Assembly (NCBI RefSeq): GCF_003334815.1
Contig: NZ_QOWO01000018.1
Source: Escherichia coli
GTDB taxonomy: Bacteria > Pseudomonadota > Gammaproteobacteria > Enterobacterales > Enterobacteriaceae
DNA: 64,000 nt
Strand: one strand, 5' to 3'
Made by a program: the position numbers and the translations under genes. The notes beneath the pieces are model-generated. The model was given only the letters and a program-made list of their open reading frames with translations, had not been told where the DNA came from and did not search any database. Numbering within the stretch: position 1 is the stretch's first letter; every line of letters starts with the position of its first letter. Positions 4,921-50,137 of the stretch are shown in pieces.

Positions 4921-5631
4921 ATGACCATTGAAACACTGCGCGGGCGCTATCGCCTGCACCGCTTCCCGCCGCGCCAGCGTGCGGTGACCGGAGAACCGCT
5001 CACCGCCAGCATTAGCGCCGCCGATTACCAGCGCCAGTTGATGGACGGTTTTCAGGAAGGGCTGCAAAAAGGTTTTGCTCAGGGAATGACCGAAGGTCAG
5101 GAGCAGGGCTTTAGCGAAGGTCATCAGCAAGGTTTTGCCGAGGGGCGACGCCAGGGCTACACCGAAGGCAGTCTCGCCGGGCAGCAGGAAGGGCGCAAAC
5201 AGTTTGTTGAGGCGGCGCAGCCGCTGGAAGCCATCACCGGTAAAGTGAACGACTTTCTCGCCCATATCGAACGTAAACAGCGGGAAGATTTGCTGCAACT
5301 GGTGGAAAAGGTGACGCGGCAGGTGATCCGCTGCGAACTGGCGCTGCAACCGACGCAGTTGCTGGCGCTGGTGGAAGAGGCGCTGGCGGCCTTCCCGGCG
5401 ATGCCGGAAACCCTGCAAGTGATGCTGAGTACGGAAGAGTTTAACCGCCTGCGCGACGCGGTGCCGGAAAAGGTCAGCGAATGGGGGCTGACGCCTTCGC
5501 CGGATCTGCCACCGGGCGAATGCCGGGTGATCACCGACAAATCCGAACTGGATATCGGCTGCGAGCATCGCCTTGAACAATGCATGACCGCGCTGAAAGA
5601 AACACTCACGCCGGAGTCGCAGGGTGAGTGA
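4921..5631 (+). CDS. lfiH: Flagellar export apparatus protein FliH homolog
   Basis: 236 aa; AxxxG repeat region (QEGLQKGFAQGMTEGQEQGFSEGHQQGFAEG) typical of FliH; precedes fliI. Confidence 0.75.
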   Translation: MTIETLRGRYRLHRFPPRQRAVTGEPLTASISAADYQRQLMDGFQEGLQKGFAQGMTEGQEQGFSEGHQQGFAEGRRQGYTEGSLAGQQEGRKQFVEAAQPLEAITGKVNDFLAHIERKQREDLLQLVEKVTRQVIRCELALQPTQLLALVEEALAAFPAMPETLQVMLSTEEFNRLRDAVPEKVSEWGLTPSPDLPPGECRVITDKSELDIGCEHRLEQCMTALKETLTPESQGE

Positions 5632-6963: not shown

Positions 6964-7398
6964 ATGCGACAAATCATCGACACCCTGGCGCAGTTGCAGC
7001 GCCTGCGGGATAAATCGGTCAAAGACAAAACCGTCGAGCTGGCAAAGCAAAAACAGATTTGCGCGGGTTATGACAACAATATCAAGGCGTTAGGCTACCT
7101 TGTCGAGAAAACATCTGCGGGTGCGGCGGTGTCGGTGGAATCGCTGAAAAACGTCAGCGGCTACAAAGGCACCCTGCGCAAGGTAATCGCCTGGCAGGAG
7201 CAGGAAAAAACGCTGGCCAATATCAAAGCCACGCGAATGCAGAAAAACCTCACGGCGGCGGCGTGCGAAGAGAAAGTAGTCGCCCTGACGCTGGACGACA
7301 AACGCCGCGAGCAACAAGAAAGCGCCACGGCGAAAGCGCAAAAAGCGGTGGACGACATCGCCGTGCAGTGCTGGCTGCGGCACAAATTAGCGGAGTAG
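6964..7398 (+). CDS. lfiJ: Flagellar export protein FliJ homolog
   Basis: 144 aa coiled-coil protein directly after fliI; ATG at 6964 follows the fliI stop (ORF track frame extends to 6937). Confidence 0.6.
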   Translation: MRQIIDTLAQLQRLRDKSVKDKTVELAKQKQICAGYDNNIKALGYLVEKTSAGAAVSVESLKNVSGYKGTLRKVIAWQEQEKTLANIKATRMQKNLTAAACEEKVVALTLDDKRREQQESATAKAQKAVDDIAVQCWLRHKLAE

Positions 7399-7400
7399 CC

Positions 7401-7796
7401 ATGAAAACGGTCATCACCTTCGGCACCTTCGATGTGTTTCATGTCGGTCATCTGCGCCTTTTACAACGCGCCCGCGCATTGGGCGAGCGGCTGCTGGTCG
7501 GCGTATCGTCCGACGCCCTGAACATCGCCAAAAAGGGCAGGGCACCGGTTTACCATCAGGATGACCGCATGGCGATCATCGCCGGGCTGGCGTGCGTGGA
7601 TGGCGTATTTCTGGAAGAGTCGCTGGAGCAAAAAGCGGAGTATTTGCGCGGGTACAGTGCGGATATTTTAGTGATGGGGGATGACTGGGCAGGGAAGTTT
7701 GACAGCTTTGCGTATATTTGTGAGGTGGTCTATTTCCCCCGCACGCCGTCGGTGTCGACGACGGGGATTATTGAGGTGATTAGAGGGCTTTTATAA
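7401..7796 (+). CDS. Glycerol-3-phosphate cytidylyltransferase-like protein (TagD/TarD family nucleotidyltransferase)
   Basis: 131 aa; HxGH signature FGTFDVFHVGH, MGDDWAGKFD and CEVVYFPRT..STTGI motifs as in CTP:glycerol-3-phosphate cytidylyltransferases; ATG at 7401 directly after lfiJ stop with GGAG RBS. Confidence 0.75.
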   Translation: MKTVITFGTFDVFHVGHLRLLQRARALGERLLVGVSSDALNIAKKGRAPVYHQDDRMAIIAGLACVDGVFLEESLEQKAEYLRGYSADILVMGDDWAGKFDSFAYICEVVYFPRTPSVSTTGIIEVIRGLL

Positions 7797-7821
7797 AGTA
7801 CTAAAACAGAGATGTATTTTC

Positions 7822-7905
<84 letters not shown>

Positions 7906-7913
7906 TGCGCGGT

Positions 7914-10358
7914 TTACCCCAGCGCCTCCACAATCACAATCGCCGCCCGTTCTCCCGCCTTGCCATCCATAAACGCATCGCAATAGTGATGGCGAATCTC
8001 CGTAAGCCGCGCCTGCACCGACCCCCAGTCAAACGCCTCTGACAACAAATAACGCAGTTCTGCAACATCATGAGCAACCGGCAATATTTCGCGGATTCGC
8101 TGGTCGGCGCTCTCTGCCGTGGAATAACTTTTCTCACCGTCGAGCAAATCATTCATGCCCGGAAAGTCGAGCAGGATCACCCGCTTATCAACGTGGATAG
8201 CATCGAAAATAAACCCGCTGTTATCGGTCAGCACGTAATCGGCTTTTGCCAGCAGCGCCAGCGTGTGGCGGGCGGAGTCGGTGCGCTGTTTTAAATGCCT
8301 GCGCACCAGGGCCAGCGATGCTGCTTCTTCCGGGCGTGAGCAGGTGCCATGGTGCAGTTTGCAAATCAGGTTCACATCACCGCTCAAGCGGCCCAATTTT
8401 TCAGCCCAGTGGGGCAGGGAGCTTAATGCGCCAAACGTTGGGGCATAGAGCACCGTAGGTTTACGGTAATCTGATTGGATGTTTTCCGGCAACGCGCGAT
8501 CGAACGTGCCGTTATGCCAGGCGTCGAAGCGCGGGTTGCCGACCACTTTTGCGCTGCCGAAATGCGCCAGCGCCTGCTGACTGTAGTGGCTATAACACAA
8601 AATGCTTTGGTAAAAACGATTCCAGTCGGCGTGGTTCCACGTCTCTTTGGCTAAGCCGTACATAGCGCGGATGTTCACCGCCGCCAGGCCATTGAGCGCA
8701 GGCGTGTGGTAGGGGCTGACCAGGCATTTCACCCGCTGACCATGTGTCTGCATTTCTGACAGACGCATACCTTTAAGCTGCGGATCGTCGATGTTTTTCA
8801 GTGTTTCCAGCATCTCATCAAGAAACGGTTTAAACACGCGGTCATTGATCACTAGTGTGCAGCTCTGCCCCTGCGCCTGTAGAGCGGTGATGATTGGGCG
8901 GTACAGCGTGTAGTGGAATGAGGTTTCCATAAAAAAGCCGATGGTATCGGCGATGGGTAATGTAGATGGCTTGGTGGCTACGGGTAACTTATTGAAATAG
9001 TGAGCAATATTATCAGTCGTTTTTTTCTCGATATCACTAAAACCCGGTCGCTGGTAGCAAAGGCTCGGGTAACAGGCCAGCCATTTGTCGGCGCGTAGCA
9101 GCGGCTGCCAGCAGGCTTCCAGCGAGTGCTCATCGTTGCTCATCTGCTGCGCCAGTTGCGGGTAGTAGCGGCTGTTCACCAGATACGCGCACACTTTGCG
9201 GCAGTCCCGCGCGTGCACCAGCCCCGGCAAACTTTTTAGCATCGTTCCCTGCGAAATTTCGCCACCGAGGATCATCACCTGCCAGGGAATTTTCGCCAGG
9301 CTCGCCAGCAGCGTGTTCAGTACCTGAATATGTTTCTCCTGCTTGAGAATAACCGCGTCATCTTCCAGCAGCAGGTAGTTTTGCCAGCCGTGCTGTTGCG
9401 CCAGGCGCAGCGCCTGTAAGTGCGACTGACGGCGGCCCCGTTGACCGTTTTCATCTTCACTGGCGGCAAGGCGGGTGATCTTCTCAGGTGGAATATGCAG
9501 CAATGCCAGTTCTTCACGGATCTGTTGTAAGCGATCCGGGCGTTTATCCAGATTCAGCAGAACGATCTGATCGATCGCCTGATGGTTGATCGCCTGGTGA
9601 TGAGTGGCGTTATGCAGACTCAGATAAGCATTGCGCAGCAGCGGATCGCGGACGATATCCGTAAGCGCCGCGTTTACTGGCGTGCTGGCCCCGAGAATAA
9701 AATCTTTATCAAAGGTGTTGTGACTATGCGAGATACACAGAATCGTGCGCTCGCCGGGCAGTTGCAGCGGGTTTACGCTGAAATTGTCGGTGAAACGTTT
9801 CTCTTCGCCTAAATTGCAATCATCGTCGTAACGGTGCTTTTTCAGGTAGTTACGGTGATAGCAAAAGGTGCCGTTGAGGATGTTATGCGGGCCAAAGCTG
9901 CGGCTTTGAAAGATGCGGTTGATGTGGCTGTACCAGATGGGGATCTGATCGGAGCCGGAGATGAGCGCCCGGTGTTTTTGCATCATGGCGATGGTGTAAG
10001 AGATTTTATCTGCCGGGTAGTAGTCGTCATCGTCCATGCAGAGGATGTATTCGCCGCGCGCCAGTTCGTTGAGCATGTTGCGTTTTTTGCCCAGCGGCAG
10101 TTTTTCCGGGTGATGGATGTAGCGGATGTTAAAGGCTTCCGGCGTGCCATTGGTCAGGCGGTCGATGATGTGTTGATGGCTTTGTGGGGAATCGTCGAGG
10201 ATGATGAGTTCGCGGCGGTCTGCCGGGTAATCCTGATAGCGGTACATATAGAGCAGGTACGGCAGGAATGCGCCGCGGTTCCAGGTTGGCGTGACGACGC
10301 TGACAAACGGTTTTTCGCGGTGGGTGTTGAGTGTTTTGATGATGGTTGGTGTTGGCAT
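7914..10358 (-). CDS. Large multidomain glycosyltransferase: GT2-like N-terminus, GT25-like middle region, TagB/TagF-like CDP-glycerol glycerophosphotransferase C-terminus
   Basis: 814 aa from ATG at 10358 (MPTPTIIKT); VSVVTPTWNRG...ILDDSP and ILCMDDDDYY (GT-A/DxD-like), central LNLDKRPDRL...LLLEDDAVI region, C-terminal ...YVLTDNSGFIFDAIHVDKRVILLDFPG resembling Glyphos_transf; ORF-track N-terminal extension to 10430 is read-through of a repeat and rejected. Confidence 0.7.
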   Translation of the reverse strand: MPTPTIIKTLNTHREKPFVSVVTPTWNRGAFLPYLLYMYRYQDYPADRRELIILDDSPQSHQHIIDRLTNGTPEAFNIRYIHHPEKLPLGKKRNMLNELARGEYILCMDDDDYYPADKISYTIAMMQKHRALISGSDQIPIWYSHINRIFQSRSFGPHNILNGTFCYHRNYLKKHRYDDDCNLGEEKRFTDNFSVNPLQLPGERTILCISHSHNTFDKDFILGASTPVNAALTDIVRDPLLRNAYLSLHNATHHQAINHQAIDQIVLLNLDKRPDRLQQIREELALLHIPPEKITRLAASEDENGQRGRRQSHLQALRLAQQHGWQNYLLLEDDAVILKQEKHIQVLNTLLASLAKIPWQVMILGGEISQGTMLKSLPGLVHARDCRKVCAYLVNSRYYPQLAQQMSNDEHSLEACWQPLLRADKWLACYPSLCYQRPGFSDIEKKTTDNIAHYFNKLPVATKPSTLPIADTIGFFMETSFHYTLYRPIITALQAQGQSCTLVINDRVFKPFLDEMLETLKNIDDPQLKGMRLSEMQTHGQRVKCLVSPYHTPALNGLAAVNIRAMYGLAKETWNHADWNRFYQSILCYSHYSQQALAHFGSAKVVGNPRFDAWHNGTFDRALPENIQSDYRKPTVLYAPTFGALSSLPHWAEKLGRLSGDVNLICKLHHGTCSRPEEAASLALVRRHLKQRTDSARHTLALLAKADYVLTDNSGFIFDAIHVDKRVILLDFPGMNDLLDGEKSYSTAESADQRIREILPVAHDVAELRYLLSEAFDWGSVQARLTEIRHHYCDAFMDGKAGERAAIVIVEALG

Positions 10359-10406
10359 GGTGTTTGGGTGAGTTAATGGGTGAATGTGATGAATGTGCGC
10401 GCTGAT

Positions 10407-19626: not shown

Positions 19627-19925
19627 TGAAAGTTAACGGCAGCGGCGGGATTGACGGCAGCGATGCGTTAATGGGGCCGAAGGTTCAGGCCAATGATATC
19701 AGGCAGGCCGCCGAACAGTTTGAGGCGATTTTTTTACGCAACATGCTGAAAGAGATGCGTAAAACCAACGAGTTGTTTGATTCGAAAGATAACCCATTTA
19801 ACAGCGATTCGGTGCGCATGATGCAGGGATTTTATGACGATGAGTTGTGTAACACCCTGGCGCAGCAGCACGGGATTGGGATTGCGGCGATGATTGTGAA
19901 GCAGTTGTCGCCGAAGCATAGGTGA
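19626..19925 (+). CDS. lfgJ: FlgJ homolog, rod-binding domain only (no muramidase domain)
   Basis: 99 aa; FEAIFLRNMLKEMRK rod-binding motif; gene ends before flgK with no glucosaminidase region. Confidence 0.6.
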   Translation: MKVNGSGGIDGSDALMGPKVQANDIRQAAEQFEAIFLRNMLKEMRKTNELFDSKDNPFNSDSVRMMQGFYDDELCNTLAQQHGIGIAAMIVKQLSPKHR

Positions 19926-19936
19926 AGCTCCGACGT

Positions 19937-20150
<214 letters not shown>

Positions 20151-22565: not shown

Positions 22566-23543
22566 ATGCAGGTCGGACTTACTTCTTCGTCACTCGCCAC
22601 CGGCAGCGCGCATAGCGCTGCGGTATCGTCGTCAACCGTTGCGCCCACTCAGGCGGTGCGGCAAAAACTCCCGGCGACGGCGAGTGAATATCCGGCCTCG
22701 CCGCTGATTACCACTCGCCCGCAGCGTTACAGCGTGCAGCTTAACGACCAGCTCACCACGTTGCAGCAGGCGGATCACTACCTCGGGCAACTGGAGCAGC
22801 AGTTGCTCGATTATCGTCACAGCCAGCGTAAGGGCGGGCAGGCGCAGAGTACGGCGCTGATGCAGATGCTGGACAAACGCACCGCGCTTTCCGGCGGTGC
22901 GGTAGACCGCCAGTTGCAGCCAGTGTTGCAGGGCGAGGCGCGGGTGACTTTTCACTCGCCGGATCTGGCGAATCTCGTACACAACCCCACGCCGGGAACG
23001 CGCATGTTCAGCGTCTCTGACGGGCGGCAGACTCAGCTTTCGGCGGTGATGCTGTCTGAGGATGACAGCGCCGCGCAGTATCAGACGCGGCTGACCAACG
23101 CCCTGCGCCGCGTGGGTGTGCAACTGCATCAGCAAGCGGACGGCATCAGCTTCTCCACCACCGAAAAGCAGTGGCCCAACATTGAAAGCACCTTAAGCGT
23201 GCGCACCGATGGTGATAAGTCGGCGTTTATGCCGCTAAAAACCTTTGCCGAACCGTCGCAGGCCGAGCGTTTAGCGCAAAGCCTGCAACAGGGCGGGGCA
23301 GGGATTTCCCAGATGTTAGAAAACATTAATCAGCAGCGCGCGCAAATGGCGGTGCAGCAGGAAAAAGCCCGCCAGTTGATCGACGGCATGTCCCGCTTCC
23401 CGCAAACGGAAAACGCCGTGCAGGCGTCGGAAAATCTCGGCGGCGTGTTGGATAGCGCGAATCATAACTATCAGGTGTTATTGCAGGCGGTGAATGGTCA
23501 GGCGCGAATTTCCAGCCAGACGGTGAGGAGTTTATTGGGATAA
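22566..23543 (+). CDS. lafW: Hypothetical flagellar protein with flagellin-type C-terminal helix (LafW-like)
   Basis: 325 aa; C-terminus ...VLLQAVNGQARISSQTVRSLLG resembles the flagellin/HAP C-terminal motif; N-terminus unlike flagellin. Confidence 0.4.
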   Translation: MQVGLTSSSLATGSAHSAAVSSSTVAPTQAVRQKLPATASEYPASPLITTRPQRYSVQLNDQLTTLQQADHYLGQLEQQLLDYRHSQRKGGQAQSTALMQMLDKRTALSGGAVDRQLQPVLQGEARVTFHSPDLANLVHNPTPGTRMFSVSDGRQTQLSAVMLSEDDSAAQYQTRLTNALRRVGVQLHQQADGISFSTTEKQWPNIESTLSVRTDGDKSAFMPLKTFAEPSQAERLAQSLQQGGAGISQMLENINQQRAQMAVQQEKARQLIDGMSRFPQTENAVQASENLGGVLDSANHNYQVLLQAVNGQARISSQTVRSLLG

Positions 23544-23548
23544 TTATC

Positions 23549-23588
23549 GGTAGGCCGGATAAGACGCGTTTAGCGTCGCATCCGGCAT
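23549..23588. repeat. REP element
   Basis: gtaggccggataagacgcgtttagcgtcgcatccggca. Confidence 0.8.
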
Positions 23589-23601
23589 ATATTGGCACTC
23601 A

Positions 23602-24444
23602 TCAGCACTTCTGCACAGTATTTAACAACTTCTCTAAATTCTGATACATCGCGCTATTAATATCGCTATTCTGCCACTCATCCACATTAAAGGTTAATTG
23701 CCAGCTACCGTTGCACTGGTTGCGCAGAACAATATCACTCTCCAGTCGGTTACGAACATATTTATAATAGGTTGTCATTGTCATATTATGCGCTGACAAT
23801 AAATTATCGAGTTTGTCTTTTCCTGGTGCGAGGGTTTGTGACAGTAACGGTGCGGAATTATTTTCTTTTCCAGAACTAAGGTGAAATATTTTTATTCTTG
23901 GGCTGTTAATTGACTCTTTTACCAGTTGCGGGGCGTCAGGTGTACTTTTCAAGTGTGAATACCCCACGGTCGAGCCAATAAATATAACAGCCGCGGTCAA
24001 CGCTAACCCCATCAGTCCTTTATGTTTTTTTCTAACAGGCACAGGCAGGGTTGTCGAAGATATCTCTCCTGGCACAGTTTCCTGTACCTGGTTGGTAATA
24101 ATCAGCGCTTCCGCAGGCGATGACTCCGGCAAAGACACATACTCTTTATTGCACAGGTAACCTTTTTTCGGGATGGTTTTAATAATGTTCTGTTGTTTGC
24201 CATCATCGTCGATAGCAACGCGTAATGCATGTATCGCCGTCGGCAGGCTGTTACCGCCGACAATGCGGTTCTTCCATACTTCGGCACATAAATAAGATCG
24301 CGATAAAACCACATCGGCATTTTTTGCTAATGTTTCCAGCAAAATAAAATGGTATTCGCCGAGACGACGTGTTTCACCCGTTTCGCAATGTATTAAGGCA
24401 TTAAGCGACGGGTCCATCCGCCAGTTGTTGATAATAATACTCAT
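23602..24444 (-). CDS. lafZ: ToxR/CadC-like membrane-anchored winged-helix transcriptional regulator (LafZ-like)
   Basis: N-terminal OmpR/PhoB-type winged-helix region (LLETLAKNADVVLSRSYLCAEVWKN...IKTIPKKGY), one predicted TM helix (GLMGLALTAAVIFIGSTVGY), C-terminal periplasmic region; start at 24444 preferred, 24495 possible. Confidence 0.6.
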   Translation of the reverse strand: MSIIINNWRMDPSLNALIHCETGETRRLGEYHFILLETLAKNADVVLSRSYLCAEVWKNRIVGGNSLPTAIHALRVAIDDDGKQQNIIKTIPKKGYLCNKEYVSLPESSPAEALIITNQVQETVPGEISSTTLPVPVRKKHKGLMGLALTAAVIFIGSTVGYSHLKSTPDAPQLVKESINSPRIKIFHLSSGKENNSAPLLSQTLAPGKDKLDNLLSAHNMTMTTYYKYVRNRLESDIVLRNQCNGSWQLTFNVDEWQNSDINSAMYQNLEKLLNTVQKC

Positions 24445-24857
24445 AGTTGAGTTTACCTTAGCAAGGGATAAATGTTTCCTGATAGTGCTTTGCATAAAGC
24501 ACAGTCTTATACGTCCCTGAGAAGATGATTTTTCTGCGTGATAATTAATATTTTATGGTAATAGGATTATTCTTAATCACTATATGGCGTGGAAATGTAA
24601 CGAAATGACAGGACAGGTACAATAGCCAAATGTGTACTATTTGCAACGCAATGTAAATTTTGGCATCAGTACATTGAGAAGAAAACGCGTTAATTGATGG
24701 TAATCTTAACTATATCAAGCGTTTGATAAAGACATATTTTGATACCTGGCCATGTGGCAGATATTGCTAATAATCTTTTTATCTGAATTTAAACTCTGCT
24801 TTTTTTAGCTAAAAGTGGCATCAGATAAACCGCAGTGAAATTTTTTTAACGGCGGTT

Positions 24858-24884
24858 TTAAGTTTGCTCCCGAGGTGTCGTTTT
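24858..24884 (+). promoter_or_regulatory. Candidate sigma-28 promoter upstream of flagellin lafA
   Basis: TTAAGTTT-N11-GTCGTTTT (7/8 match at -35, weak -10) about 45 nt upstream of the lafA ATG. Confidence 0.25.
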
Positions 24885-24929
24885 TACAGGGTATCGAAAC
24901 GAAAACGATTAATCCCAAGGAGCAGTATC

Positions 24930-25844
24930 ATGTTATCTATTAACACCAATAACGCCTCAATGGCCGCCGTTAATGCAATCAGCAAAAGCAGCTCTTCTCT
25001 GTCTACATCTATGGAACGCCTGGCGACAGGTAACCGGATTAACTCTTCTGCCGATGACGCCGCAGGCAAACAAATTGCTAACCGTCTGACAGCACAGTCC
25101 AGCGGTATGGATGTTGCGCTGAGCAACATCAATGATGCCACCGCGATGCTGCAAACCGCCGACAGCATGTTCGACGAAATGTCTGACGTGCTGGGTCGTA
25201 TGAAAGACCTGTCAACTCAGGCAGCGAACGGCACCTACAGCGACGACGATCTGCAGGCGATGCAGGACGAATACGACGAACTGGGCCAGCAGATGTCTGA
25301 CATGCTGCAAAACACCACCTACGGCGGCACCAACCTGTTCGGTGTTTCCGGCACCAGCAACACCGGTACTGACGGCCTGTTCCAGAGCGCGGTAACTTTC
25401 CAGGTGGGCGCGGAATCTTCCGACACCATGACCGTGAACATCTCTAGCCAACTGAACACGCTGGTGACTGACCTTTCTGCTATCAGCAACTCCTTCAGTG
25501 CGGATCAGGCAGACACCACAGGCACCGCAGGCGTTTCTGGCGGTACTGAACTGACTGCGTCTGGCTCGGCTAACCAGATGATCACCAGCATTTCTACCGC
25601 GATGGATGATGTTTCGCAGATCCAGTCCAAGCTGGGTGCGTCTATCAACCGTCTGAACGACACGGCTAATAACCTGACCAGTATGCAGGACAACACCGAA
25701 GTTGCTATCGGTAACATCATGGATACCGACTACGCTACGGAAGCGTCCAATATGACCAAACAGCAGGTGCTGATGCAGACCGGCATCACCATGCTGAAAC
25801 AGTCCAACAGCATGTCCAGCATGGTTTCCAGCCTGCTGCAGTAA
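24930..25844 (+). CDS. lafA: Lateral flagellin
   Basis: 304 aa; flagellin N-terminus MLSINTNNASMAAVN...RINSSADDAAGKQIANRL and C-terminus ...DTDYATEASNMTKQQVLMQTGITMLKQSN...SLLQ; AAGGAG RBS. Confidence 0.9.
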   Translation: MLSINTNNASMAAVNAISKSSSSLSTSMERLATGNRINSSADDAAGKQIANRLTAQSSGMDVALSNINDATAMLQTADSMFDEMSDVLGRMKDLSTQAANGTYSDDDLQAMQDEYDELGQQMSDMLQNTTYGGTNLFGVSGTSNTGTDGLFQSAVTFQVGAESSDTMTVNISSQLNTLVTDLSAISNSFSADQADTTGTAGVSGGTELTASGSANQMITSISTAMDDVSQIQSKLGASINRLNDTANNLTSMQDNTEVAIGNIMDTDYATEASNMTKQQVLMQTGITMLKQSNSMSSMVSSLLQ

Positions 25845-25854
25845 TGGCGGACTT

Positions 25855-25953
25855 GCCGGATGCGGCGTGAACGCCTTATCCGGCCTACAAAATATTGCAA
25901 ATTCAATATATTGCAGAAACCTTGTAGGCCTGATAAGCGCAGCGCATCAGGCA
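25855..25953. repeat. REP/BIME element
   Basis: gccggatgcggcgtgaacgccttatccggcctaca ... tgtaggcctgataagcgcagcgcatcaggca. Confidence 0.8.
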
Positions 25954-26087
25954 GTGTTGCGTTTGTCATCAGTCTCAACACCGCCTGCGGGCGGTGTTGT
26001 TCTTTCTGCGGCAGGCGTATTTCCACCAGACCGGAAATGGCCTTTCCGCCCATTTTTCAATCTATTGATTATTCACATAAAAATTAT

Positions 26088-26102
26088 TGGCACGCCTTTT
26101 GC
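26088..26102 (+). promoter_or_regulatory. Sigma-54 promoter TGGCACG-cctt-TTGC upstream of lafB (fliD-like) operon
   Basis: Exact -24/-12 consensus match 33 nt upstream of ATG 26135. Confidence 0.65.
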
Positions 26103-29734: not shown

Positions 29735-30451
29735 ATGCTACAGGATGTATTCGAGTCGGAAGAATTTGCTGCCGCGCCGGTATTAACCCCGCAGCAGGAG
29801 AGCCACTACTTGCAGGCCTATTTACCGTTGGTGCGTAAAGTGGTGCGGCAACTTGCCCCGCAGTGTAATTGCATTATTGATCGTCAGGATATGGAACAAA
29901 CGGCGTTAATGGGGCTGCTTAATGCCATCCGTCGCTACGGGCTGCCGGACGAAGGTTTTGCGGGCTATGCCGTGCACCGTATTCGCGGCGCGATCCTGGA
30001 TGAGCTGCGCGCTCTCGACTGGCGACCGCGCCAGCTGCGACAGAAATATCATCAGATGAAAGATCTGATTCGCGAAACGCGCAAAAAACTGGGGCACGAA
30101 CCGGAGTGGTCAGAACTGGCCGTGGAAGGGATCTCGCATGAAGATTATCTCGAATATCAGCAACTGGAAGGGGCGGAAACGCTCGCCAGCCTGGACGAAC
30201 TGCTGAACGGCGAAGGGCCTGGCATTCTGCTTGCTGGCAGGGAGCTGGAAGATCAGTTTGTCACCCAGCAAATGCTGCAACAGGCGCTTTCACAATTAAG
30301 CGAAAAAGAGCAACTGATCCTCTCCATGTATTACCAGCATGAGATGAATCTCAAAGAGATTGCGCTGGTATTAGGGCTAACCGAGGCCCGAATTTGTCAA
30401 CTGAATAAACAGATCGCGCAGAAAATTCGTGATTTTGTCTATCCGAATTAA
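29735..30451 (+). CDS. lafS: Flagellar sigma factor sigma-28 (FliA family)
   Basis: 238 aa; sigma-70 family regions 2 and 4 (YLPLVRKVVRQ..., LSEKEQLILSMYYQHEMNLKEIALVLGLTEARICQL). Confidence 0.85.
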   Translation: MLQDVFESEEFAAAPVLTPQQESHYLQAYLPLVRKVVRQLAPQCNCIIDRQDMEQTALMGLLNAIRRYGLPDEGFAGYAVHRIRGAILDELRALDWRPRQLRQKYHQMKDLIRETRKKLGHEPEWSELAVEGISHEDYLEYQQLEGAETLASLDELLNGEGPGILLAGRELEDQFVTQQMLQQALSQLSEKEQLILSMYYQHEMNLKEIALVLGLTEARICQLNKQIAQKIRDFVYPN

Positions 30452-49990: not shown

Positions 49991-50137
49991 TAGGTTAAAA
50001 ACATTGCTTTTTATATTCTGATGCAGATAGTCAGTGAGTATATCGCGCTACTTCAGGATGATGTAGATCCGAAGAACGCTACAGAAGAGAGGCATTGTTG
50101 CTGGCAAATAGAAGAAGTATCGGGTTTTGTTACCCCT

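Follow-up and report, generated by a model that had tools for sequence, protein, structure and literature searches.

The lafZ gene of the Flag-2 locus

We analysed a 64-kilobase (kb) stretch of Escherichia coli chromosomal DNA (the window). It contains an intact Flag-2 (lateral flagella) locus, which begins with flhA/lfhA, ends with lafU and is flanked by rayT and dinB. The subject of this work is lafZ, a gene for a predicted membrane-anchored transcriptional regulator, together with the intergenic region that separates it from the divergently transcribed lateral flagellin gene lafA. No Flag-2 gene in the window is flagged as a pseudogene. The genes and gaps around lafZ are as follows.

22566–23543, plus strand: lafW, a Flag-2-specific context gene, convergent with lafZ
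23545–23600: REP-type palindromic element in the 58-base-pair (bp) gap between the convergent lafW and lafZ stop codons, the position at which most Enterobacterales carry a further gene, here called the partner gene
23602–24444, minus strand: lafZ coding sequence (280 amino acids plus stop), RefSeq WP_000022372.1, 'transcriptional regulator'
24445–24929: lafZ–lafA intergenic region (the spacer), 485 bp, 35% guanine plus cytosine (GC), with blocks conserved to Citrobacter and Phytobacter
24930–25844, plus strand: lafA, lateral flagellin (NCBIfam NF033376, 667.8 bits against a cut-off of 440; RefSeq annotation)

Flag-2 was defined in E. coli strain 042. The gene in the window sits between lafW and lafA and diverges from lafA, as expected of a lafZ orthologue, and its product has the same length as the protein encoded at the LafZ position in strain 042 (NC_017626.1), with 268 of 280 residues identical (96%). 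The gene is lafZ of the Flag-2 locus and is thus already known by name; its function is unexplored. Its name is said to go back to Ren et al. 2005 (J Bacteriol 187:1430), whom De Maayer et al. 2020 (PMC6993521) cite when they list LafZ as a 'putative transmembrane regulator'. De Maayer et al. also count lafK, lafW and lafZ as genes without flag-1 counterparts, and place LafZ among the least conserved Flag-2 proteins, with 38.9% average amino-acid identity. The same authors use lafZ as a flag-2 marker gene and describe a non-motile strain whose only locus is flag-2 and which lacks lafZ. Positions 23400–25100 of the window are 100% identical to E. coli strain 300709 and many others, and this region is found in 1278 of 5426 complete E. 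coli genomes (about one quarter), often in an apparently intact locus.

The open reading frame (ORF) at 23602–24495 on the minus strand is open for 297 amino acids, and the RefSeq start, the ATG at 24442–24444, gives the 280-amino-acid form. We favour the latter because the homologues and the alignment to ToxR begin there, because the AAGGT upstream of it is conserved, and because the 17-codon extension has no Shine-Dalgarno sequence. The alternative start at 24495 was rejected, being devoid of a Shine-Dalgarno sequence, not common to the homologues, and unconserved outside Escherichia. lafZ is a real gene and not a chance ORF, since, of 1272 complete E. coli genomes with the gene, 1266 match it over at least 80% of its length (full length), and its whole-gene ratio of non-synonymous to synonymous substitution rates (dN/dS) is 0.14–0.18.

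Predicted architecture of LafZ

Three segments of LafZ could be assigned.

24154–24372, minus strand: winged helix-turn-helix domain (Pfam Trans_reg_C, residues 25–97 of the 280-amino-acid form, E = 4e-13)
23959–24018, minus strand: predicted single transmembrane helix, residues 143–162, with RKKHK on its N-terminal flank
23605–23958, minus strand: predicted periplasmic domain, residues 163–280 (118 amino acids), with a VtrA/ToxR-type beta2-alpha-beta3-alpha fold

Trans_reg_C is the sole Pfam domain in LafZ, within a conserved DNA-binding domain of approximately residues 1–110. The best sequence matches in the Protein Data Bank (PDB) are the DNA-binding domain of Vibrio cholerae ToxR (8b4b, E = 3.7e-8), with an alignment starting at LafZ residue 3, and CadC (5ju7, E = 2.3e-6). 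Residues 143–162 form the only segment of LafZ above 1.6 on the Kyte-Doolittle scale (mean 1.85 over 19 residues), and a hydrophobic segment occurs at the corresponding position in 51 of 51 homologues. The basic RKKHK preceding it places the N terminus in the cytoplasm, so that the predicted topology is N-in/C-out with one transmembrane helix. For the C-terminal 118 residues, the fold prediction is confident (pLDDT 91). In an alignment of the 51 full-length homologues (28–80% identity), the DNA-binding domain is well conserved, the linker is hypervariable and often acidic, and the periplasmic domain measures approximately 115–130 amino acids; its only invariant residues are Cys244 (codon 23713–23715) and the C-terminal Cys280 (codon 23605–23607). 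A cysteine pair with one member at the very last residue is also found in ToxR, and by this analogy an intramolecular periplasmic disulfide is likely. Thus, Pfam, hydropathy and fold prediction bear out the winged helix, single transmembrane helix and periplasmic domain proposed in the preliminary description of this region, as well as the divergence from lafA across a 485-bp AT-rich region. The label 'ToxR-like' used there is justified for the DNA-binding domain, with 8b4b as its best PDB match, and at the fold level, as it is for the topology, the sensor fold and the cysteine pair.

We considered two other assignments. No Response_reg match that would indicate a receiver domain was found in LafZ, and response-regulator models match it only in their C-terminal DNA-binding part, far below their cut-offs; LafZ is not a member of the two-component response regulators. 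The only NCBIfam matches of LafZ, all below threshold, are CadC and the DNA-binding ends of response regulators. CadC of E. coli is, like LafZ, a membrane-tethered winged-helix one-component regulator, and many LafZ proteins are named 'CadC family' by NCBI. We rejected a role of LafZ as a CadC-type lysine/pH sensor: its NCBIfam score falls short of the CadC equivalog, and neither the two-subdomain sensor nor a cadBA neighbourhood was found.

A partner gene overlaps lafZ in most related loci

Related loci were collected, 80 from species-representative genomes and several by exact-protein look-up, and 83 were scored for the partner gene. In 60 of the 83, an ORF of 145–200 amino acids with an N-terminal signal anchor or signal peptide begins just before the lafZ stop codon. 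Its ATG lies 20–29 nucleotides before that stop codon in 51 of these 60 loci, inside the LafZ codons Asn-Glu (aATGaa), and the dual coding of the overlap explains why both the LafZ L-N-E-M motif and the M-K-W/C start of the partner are conserved. All 60 ORFs form one blastp-linked family, typically of about 155 amino acids (4929–5402 of locus L006 in Citrobacter rodentium, with equivalents in 59 other loci, L017–L089). Neither a Pfam domain nor a PDB sequence match was obtained for the family, which the source records annotate only as 'hypothetical protein'. A seemingly soluble 132-amino-acid ORF called downstream of C. rodentium lafZ proved to be mis-started: the true start lies 75 nucleotides upstream, inside lafZ, and supplies the signal sequence. 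De Maayer et al. describe a 'variable region 2' (VR2) that averages 0.6 kb, with one protein, in 81% of loci (PMC6993521); the partner gene is what these authors counted as VR2 cargo.

When modelled, the C. rodentium partner adopts a predicted VtrC/ToxS-like fold. The LafZ homologue and the product of the neighbouring partner gene best match the two chains of one solved complex, VtrA/VtrC. From these models, the ancestral Flag-2 regulator appears to be a two-protein co-component pair of the VtrA/VtrC type in the sense of Kinch et al. 2022 (PMC9214523). The systems described there (PsaE/PsaF, TcpP/TcpH, YqeI/YqeJ, GrvA/FidL, MarT/FidL and BZ17_3283/BZ17_3282) share with the LafZ loci a common cassette logic, namely a membrane-tethered winged-helix regulator and an overlapping lipocalin-like partner. 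Flagella are not mentioned in that study, in which the E. coli surveyed were K-12 and Sakai; in K-12 MG1655 and O157:H7 EDL933, Flag-2 is reduced to a truncated remnant. The Flag-2 locus of Yersinia pseudotuberculosis encodes a 348-amino-acid LafZ homologue and an overlapping 148-amino-acid partner, between two flagellin genes and lafW. Judging by the matching length, this pair is very probably BZ17_3283/BZ17_3282, listed by Kinch et al. (PMC9214523) as of 'unknown function' with a periplasmic domain at residues 235–348.

VtrA/VtrC of Vibrio parahaemolyticus is a bile-salt receptor (PDB 5kev/5kew; Li et al. 2016, PMC4933562). It differs from LafZ in that the periplasmic parts have no detectable sequence similarity and in that what VtrA controls is a regulator of type III secretion rather than flagella. 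From ToxR/ToxS of Vibrio, the E. coli system differs in the absence of a ToxR-box consensus from the spacer, the lack of a ToxS-like gene, and a different regulon. ToxS and VtrC are encoded directly downstream of ToxR and VtrA. E. coli LafZ resembles both systems in its fold and cysteine pair and departs from them in having no adjacent partner gene.

Two side observations concern the related loci. Regulator–partner pairs that have no Flag-2 gene closer than 3.5 kb (L037, L038, L041, L043, L053, L054, L064, L066, L071, L073, L078 and L083) occur in Erwinia, Winslowiella, Silvania, Kosakonia, Cedecea colo and Limnobaculum; the pair of Erwinia aphidicola is neighboured by unannotated proteins and a MocR-like regulator. 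A record titled Chryseobacterium sp. 18061 (L035) holds an enterobacterial Flag-2 segment whose tblastn coordinates and identities make it look the same as the one in Citrobacter sp. 18056, which belongs to the same project; mislabelling or contamination of the record is probable.

Escherichia and Pseudocitrobacter have lost the partner and kept LafZ

The partner gene is absent from all examined loci of Escherichia (E. coli, E. marmotae, E. whittamii and others) and Pseudocitrobacter. No homologue of it was found anywhere in the window, and no Escherichia protein is among the matches listed for the partner family (120 of 142). The overlap reads AAT ACT GTG in E. coli versus AAT GAA ATG, the N-E-M codons, in partner-bearing loci, so that the start codon of the partner is gone. 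Escherichia and Pseudocitrobacter have thus lost the partner gene while keeping LafZ. This loss and the re-reading of the VR2 'cargo' as a co-sensor are the only new points of our analysis. At the site of the REP-type element, an Rfam scan of 23400–25100 gave a sub-threshold naRNA4/REP match (23553–23596). REP-type palindromes fill further Flag-2 gaps at 19800–20040 and 25850–26100, and rayT, a gene for a REP-associated transposase, lies directly to the left of the Flag-2 locus (6131–6628 of L002).

In all comparisons, dN/dS of the LafZ DNA-binding domain is 0.02–0.07. Within the partner-less clade of Escherichia and Pseudocitrobacter, it is 0.06–0.07 for the DNA-binding domain and 0.09–0.17 for the periplasmic domain, and the linker and transmembrane segment are near neutral at 0.3–1.2; these values rest on up to 39 non-synonymous and 43 synonymous changes. 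Because of the low dN/dS in this clade and the full-length gene in nearly all carrier genomes, LafZ appears to be functional in E. coli, with a periplasmic domain that still seems to matter. The divergence between the two genera is mosaic. LafA, LafB, LafW and LfgL of Pseudocitrobacter (L007 and L014–L016) are 93–99% identical to those of E. coli, and LafZ only 61–66%; the identity at fourfold sites is 0.40 for lafZ and 0.81 for lafA. Either the lafZ alleles are therefore far older than the flanking sequences, or recombination has replaced the gene.

Conserved elements in the lafZ–lafA spacer

Five spacer elements persist across genera, as seen in an alignment of five species (alignment A1) and a motif scan. 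The spacer contains the following features.

24455–24459, minus strand: Shine-Dalgarno-like AAGGT of lafZ (ACCTT on the plus strand), invariant in alignment A1
24564–24575: conserved block GATTATTCTTA in alignment A1, holding the candidate lafZ −10 element
24567–24595, minus strand: candidate sigma-70 promoter of lafZ from a consensus scan, −35 TTTCCA (24595–24590) and −10 AATAAT (24572–24567)
24593–24601, plus strand: block D, AAATGTAAC, conserved, overlapping the candidate lafZ −35 element
24626–24667, plus strand: block C, AAATGTGTACTATTTGCAACGCAATGTAAATTTTGGCATCAG, with the core TTTGCAAC-NN-AATGTAAA at 24640–24657, a candidate regulator-binding site
24745–24782, plus strand: block B, CTGGCCATGTGGCAGATATTGCTAATAATCTTTTTATC, with a sigma-70-like TGGCCA-N16-AATAAT towards lafA, a candidate second lafA promoter or binding site
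24858–24884, plus strand: predicted sigma-28 (LafS)-type lafA promoter, TTAAGTTT-N11-GTCGTTTT, from cross-species comparison
24885–24929, plus strand: conserved 5′ leader of lafA with the Shine-Dalgarno sequence AAGGAG (24917–24922), from alignment A1

We read TTAAGTTT-N11-GTCGTTTT as the predicted LafS (sigma-28) promoter of lafA. A LafS-type element lies at −75 to −95 relative to the start codon of lafA, in loci that range from Citrobacter as far as Budvicia, Cedecea and Yersinia, and GTCGTTTT occurs in 20 of 32 Flag-2 spacers against 0.3 expected. The E. coli FliA consensus TAAAGTTT-N11-GCCGATAA gave nothing above the 12/16 threshold upstream of lafA; the lateral promoter has its own form. 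Within the Flag-2 locus, the only other match to the lafA promoter pattern is a second LafS-type motif, TAAAGTTT-N12-ACCGCTTT, at 12352–12379 on the minus strand, inside lfgA and upstream of lfgM. The class 3 flgM promoter of flag-1 occupies the corresponding place upstream of flgM. No properly spaced sigma-54 site (GG-N10-GC) is present in the spacer, and TGGCAGATATTGCT in block B was rejected as such a site for being two nucleotides too short. Sigma-54-like sequences were noted elsewhere in the window, TGGCACGGCGATTGCT at 13161–13176 (plus strand), just inside the annotated lfgB, and TGGCATTCTGCTTGCT at 30220–30235 (plus strand), inside lafS and upstream of lafT (motA).

Blocks B, C and D are conserved at constant distances only in genera whose LafZ shows 49% identity or more, namely Escherichia, Pseudocitrobacter, Citrobacter and Phytobacter, the same four genera in which the spacing from block D to block C is fixed. 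None of the three has another close match in the window; block C has only a distant match with three mismatches at 50010. The hexamer TGCAAC is enriched in the 32 Flag-2 spacers (16 observed, 3.8 expected). Block C was considered as a CRP site (TGTGT-N6-TGCAA), which we do not claim because only 6 of 10 half-site positions fit. A related motif in Enterobacter-type loci, AAAGTGTGATGTGCAAC, contains one perfect CRP half-site. In the Flag-2 spacers of Enterobacter, Lelliottia, Kluyvera, Citrobacter koseri and Buttiauxella (L049, L056, L057, L059, L062, L065, L074, L084 and L088), ATAAAAGTGTGATGTGCAAC lies approximately 275–297 bp upstream of lafZ; it resembles block C of E. coli (AAATGTGTACTATTTGCAAC) and includes the perfect CRP half-site TGTGA. 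The Rfam scan of 23400–25100 found no RNA element in the spacer, the small ORFs in it have 21–37 codons, and a repeat search gave only short two-copy matches of doubtful meaning.

A possible regulatory link between LafZ and lafA

The arrangement of lafW, the partner gene where present, and lafZ, divergent from lafA, is kept in the Enterobacteriaceae, Yersiniaceae, Budviciaceae and Erwiniaceae. It is found in Escherichia, Citrobacter, Phytobacter, Enterobacter, Lelliottia, Kluyvera, Buttiauxella, Mangrovibacter, Leminorella, Budvicia, Rahnella, Yersinia and Izhakiella, among others. Together with the conserved spacer blocks, this synteny makes a regulatory link between LafZ and lafA plausible, if circumstantial. 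The spacer is also 96.9–99.2% identical (0.8–3.1% differing) between E. coli alleles with a synonymous divergence of 0.14–0.22 in the flanking genes, and the non-motile strain of De Maayer et al. with only a flag-2 locus and no lafZ speaks for the link as well. We regard it as slightly better than an even prospect that LafZ is a membrane-anchored regulator of the ToxR/VtrA family acting locally on the spacer it shares with lafA. LafZ would then be a single-span transcription factor of the inner membrane, with the winged helix in the cytoplasm and the sensor domain in the periplasm, and would bind DNA while anchored in the membrane. Its likeliest targets might be the blocks at 24593–24601, 24626–24667 and 24745–24782, which are the best candidates for LafZ sites serving autoregulation, lafA control, or both. 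LafZ could control its own promoter, could add to the lafA transcription driven by the LafS (sigma-28) promoter, or could do both, possibly by countering the silencing of the AT-rich spacer by nucleoid proteins. ToxR and CadC counter nucleoid-protein silencing at their own targets.

LafZ would respond to a cue from the periplasm or the envelope, and the probable reader of that cue in most Enterobacterales is the lipocalin-like VtrC/ToxS-type partner whose gene overlaps the 3′ end of lafZ. Since the partner gene is lost in Escherichia and Pseudocitrobacter, LafZ must work alone there, and the purifying selection on its periplasmic domain suggests that some role has been kept, for example in stability, dimerisation or direct sensing. 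The term 'one-component', applied to LafZ in the preliminary description, fits this clade; it does not fit most relatives, in which the VtrC/ToxS-like partner is present. The proposal made there of an input distinct from the sigma-54/sigma-28 cascade has to be amended. lafA has a widely conserved promoter of the sigma-28/LafS type, and any LafZ input would therefore be layered on the known cascade.

Several points weigh against local action on lafA. The blocks lie approximately 120–245 bp upstream of the predicted LafS-dependent start, a long way for direct activation, and nearer to the candidate lafZ promoter, so that they may serve autoregulation or other regulators. The sigma-28-type promoter of lafA is complete and may be sufficient by itself. 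The V. cholerae ToxR box TNAAA-N5-TNAAA is not present in the spacer. Because the three divergent E. coli alleles are alike, the comparison of spacers within E. coli is effectively a single one. Approximately 20 homologous regulator–partner pairs (in Erwinia, Kosakonia, Pluralibacter and others) lie away from Flag-2 genes, so the regulator family is not intrinsically flagellar. VtrA and ToxR need their partners for signalling or stability, and a partner-less LafZ may therefore be weak. LafA was not detected in the ST131 strain EC958 grown in LB at 28 or 37 °C (PMC4637896), and experimental work on LafZ was not found in the searchable literature.

Some of these points would be met if LafZ were a working regulator whose target is not lafA but lies higher in the Flag-2 hierarchy, such as lafK, or outside the locus, the spacer being conserved for the LafS promoter, the lafZ promoter and sites of global regulators. 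The position of the blocks closer to the candidate lafZ promoter, the self-sufficient lafA promoter and the pairs away from flagellar genes fit such a reading, as does the action of VtrA and ToxR on the downstream regulator genes vtrB and toxT rather than directly on structural genes (PMC9214523, PMC4933562). We nevertheless consider it unlikely, although the strongest of the alternatives, as the blocks were not found upstream of lafK or at other Flag-2 promoters in the window, and the divergent pairing with the flagellin gene has been kept in four families even though the locus is otherwise rearranged.

It is more improbable still that LafZ of Escherichia is a crippled remnant, unstable or blind to its signal without the partner, and contributing to the silence of Flag-2. 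The missing partner gene, the destroyed start codon within lafZ, the near-neutral linker and transmembrane segment, and the failure to detect LafA in EC958 could be seen in this light, and VtrA/VtrC is described as an obligate heterodimer in PMC10140157. Yet the DNA-binding and periplasmic domains remain under purifying selection across the whole partner-less clade, both cysteines are kept, and a useless gene would have decayed rather than remain full length in 1266 of 1272 genomes. Finally, we give very little credence to lafZ as horizontally acquired AT-rich cargo lying beside lafA by chance and unrelated to flagella: its GC content (43%, versus 54% in lafA, 60% in lafW and 53% in the window), the lafW–lafZ gap as the known insertion hot spot VR2, and the identity between E. 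coli and Pseudocitrobacter of 61–66% for LafZ versus 99% for LafA might suggest so, but LafZ homologues occupy the matching Flag-2 position in four enterobacterial families and De Maayer et al. employ the gene as a flag-2 marker.

Beyond the local action of LafZ that we favour, we tentatively suggest, at somewhat less than even confidence, that Flag-2 of the Enterobacterales is gated by a co-component envelope sensor of the VtrA/VtrC type, in which the VR2 'cargo' is a lipocalin-like co-sensor and LafZ of Escherichia and Pseudocitrobacter stands alone. If so, such gating would explain why Flag-2 of E. coli is silent in the laboratory and what switches it on, and Flag-2 would be the first case of flagella linked to sensors of this kind. 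LafZ is one of few Flag-2-specific regulators, and its studied relatives convert signals from outside the cytoplasm, bile salts and pH among them, into transcription; a member of such a sensor-type family is an obvious and cheap handle on Flag-2 expression. The VtrC/ToxS-like partner offers a concrete hypothesis for the signal, a small hydrophobic ligand, and the lineages with and without the partner form a natural comparison.

Other observations on the locus and the window

E. coli 042 differs from the window in a RelE/HTH toxin-antitoxin insert between lafW and lafZ and in a frameshifted lfgC, both in 042 only. The RelE/HTH pair is also missing from an E. coli O25b:H4 strain of the ST131 type (L004), in which lafW and lafZ are annotated as intact (465–2343). 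The Discussion of PMC4637896 gives 'lafWZ (putative toxin/antitoxin system)' as absent from EC958. Positions 7283–11348 of the window, between lfiJ and lfgN, correspond to Flag-2 variable region 1 and encode a cytidylyltransferase, an 814-amino-acid glycosyltransferase and a 309-amino-acid hypothetical protein, probably a flagellin-modification machinery, in line with De Maayer et al. At approximately 43521–64000 (L009), the window holds a genomic island at tRNA-Thr with a tyrosine integrase. The island carries what may be a defence module (an HsdM-family methyltransferase, a 568-amino-acid zinc-ribbon protein and a hypothetical protein), as well as an IS1-flanked Orn/Lys/Arg decarboxylase with two basic amino-acid/polyamine antiporters, a copy of hha and an inovirus Gp2-type gene.

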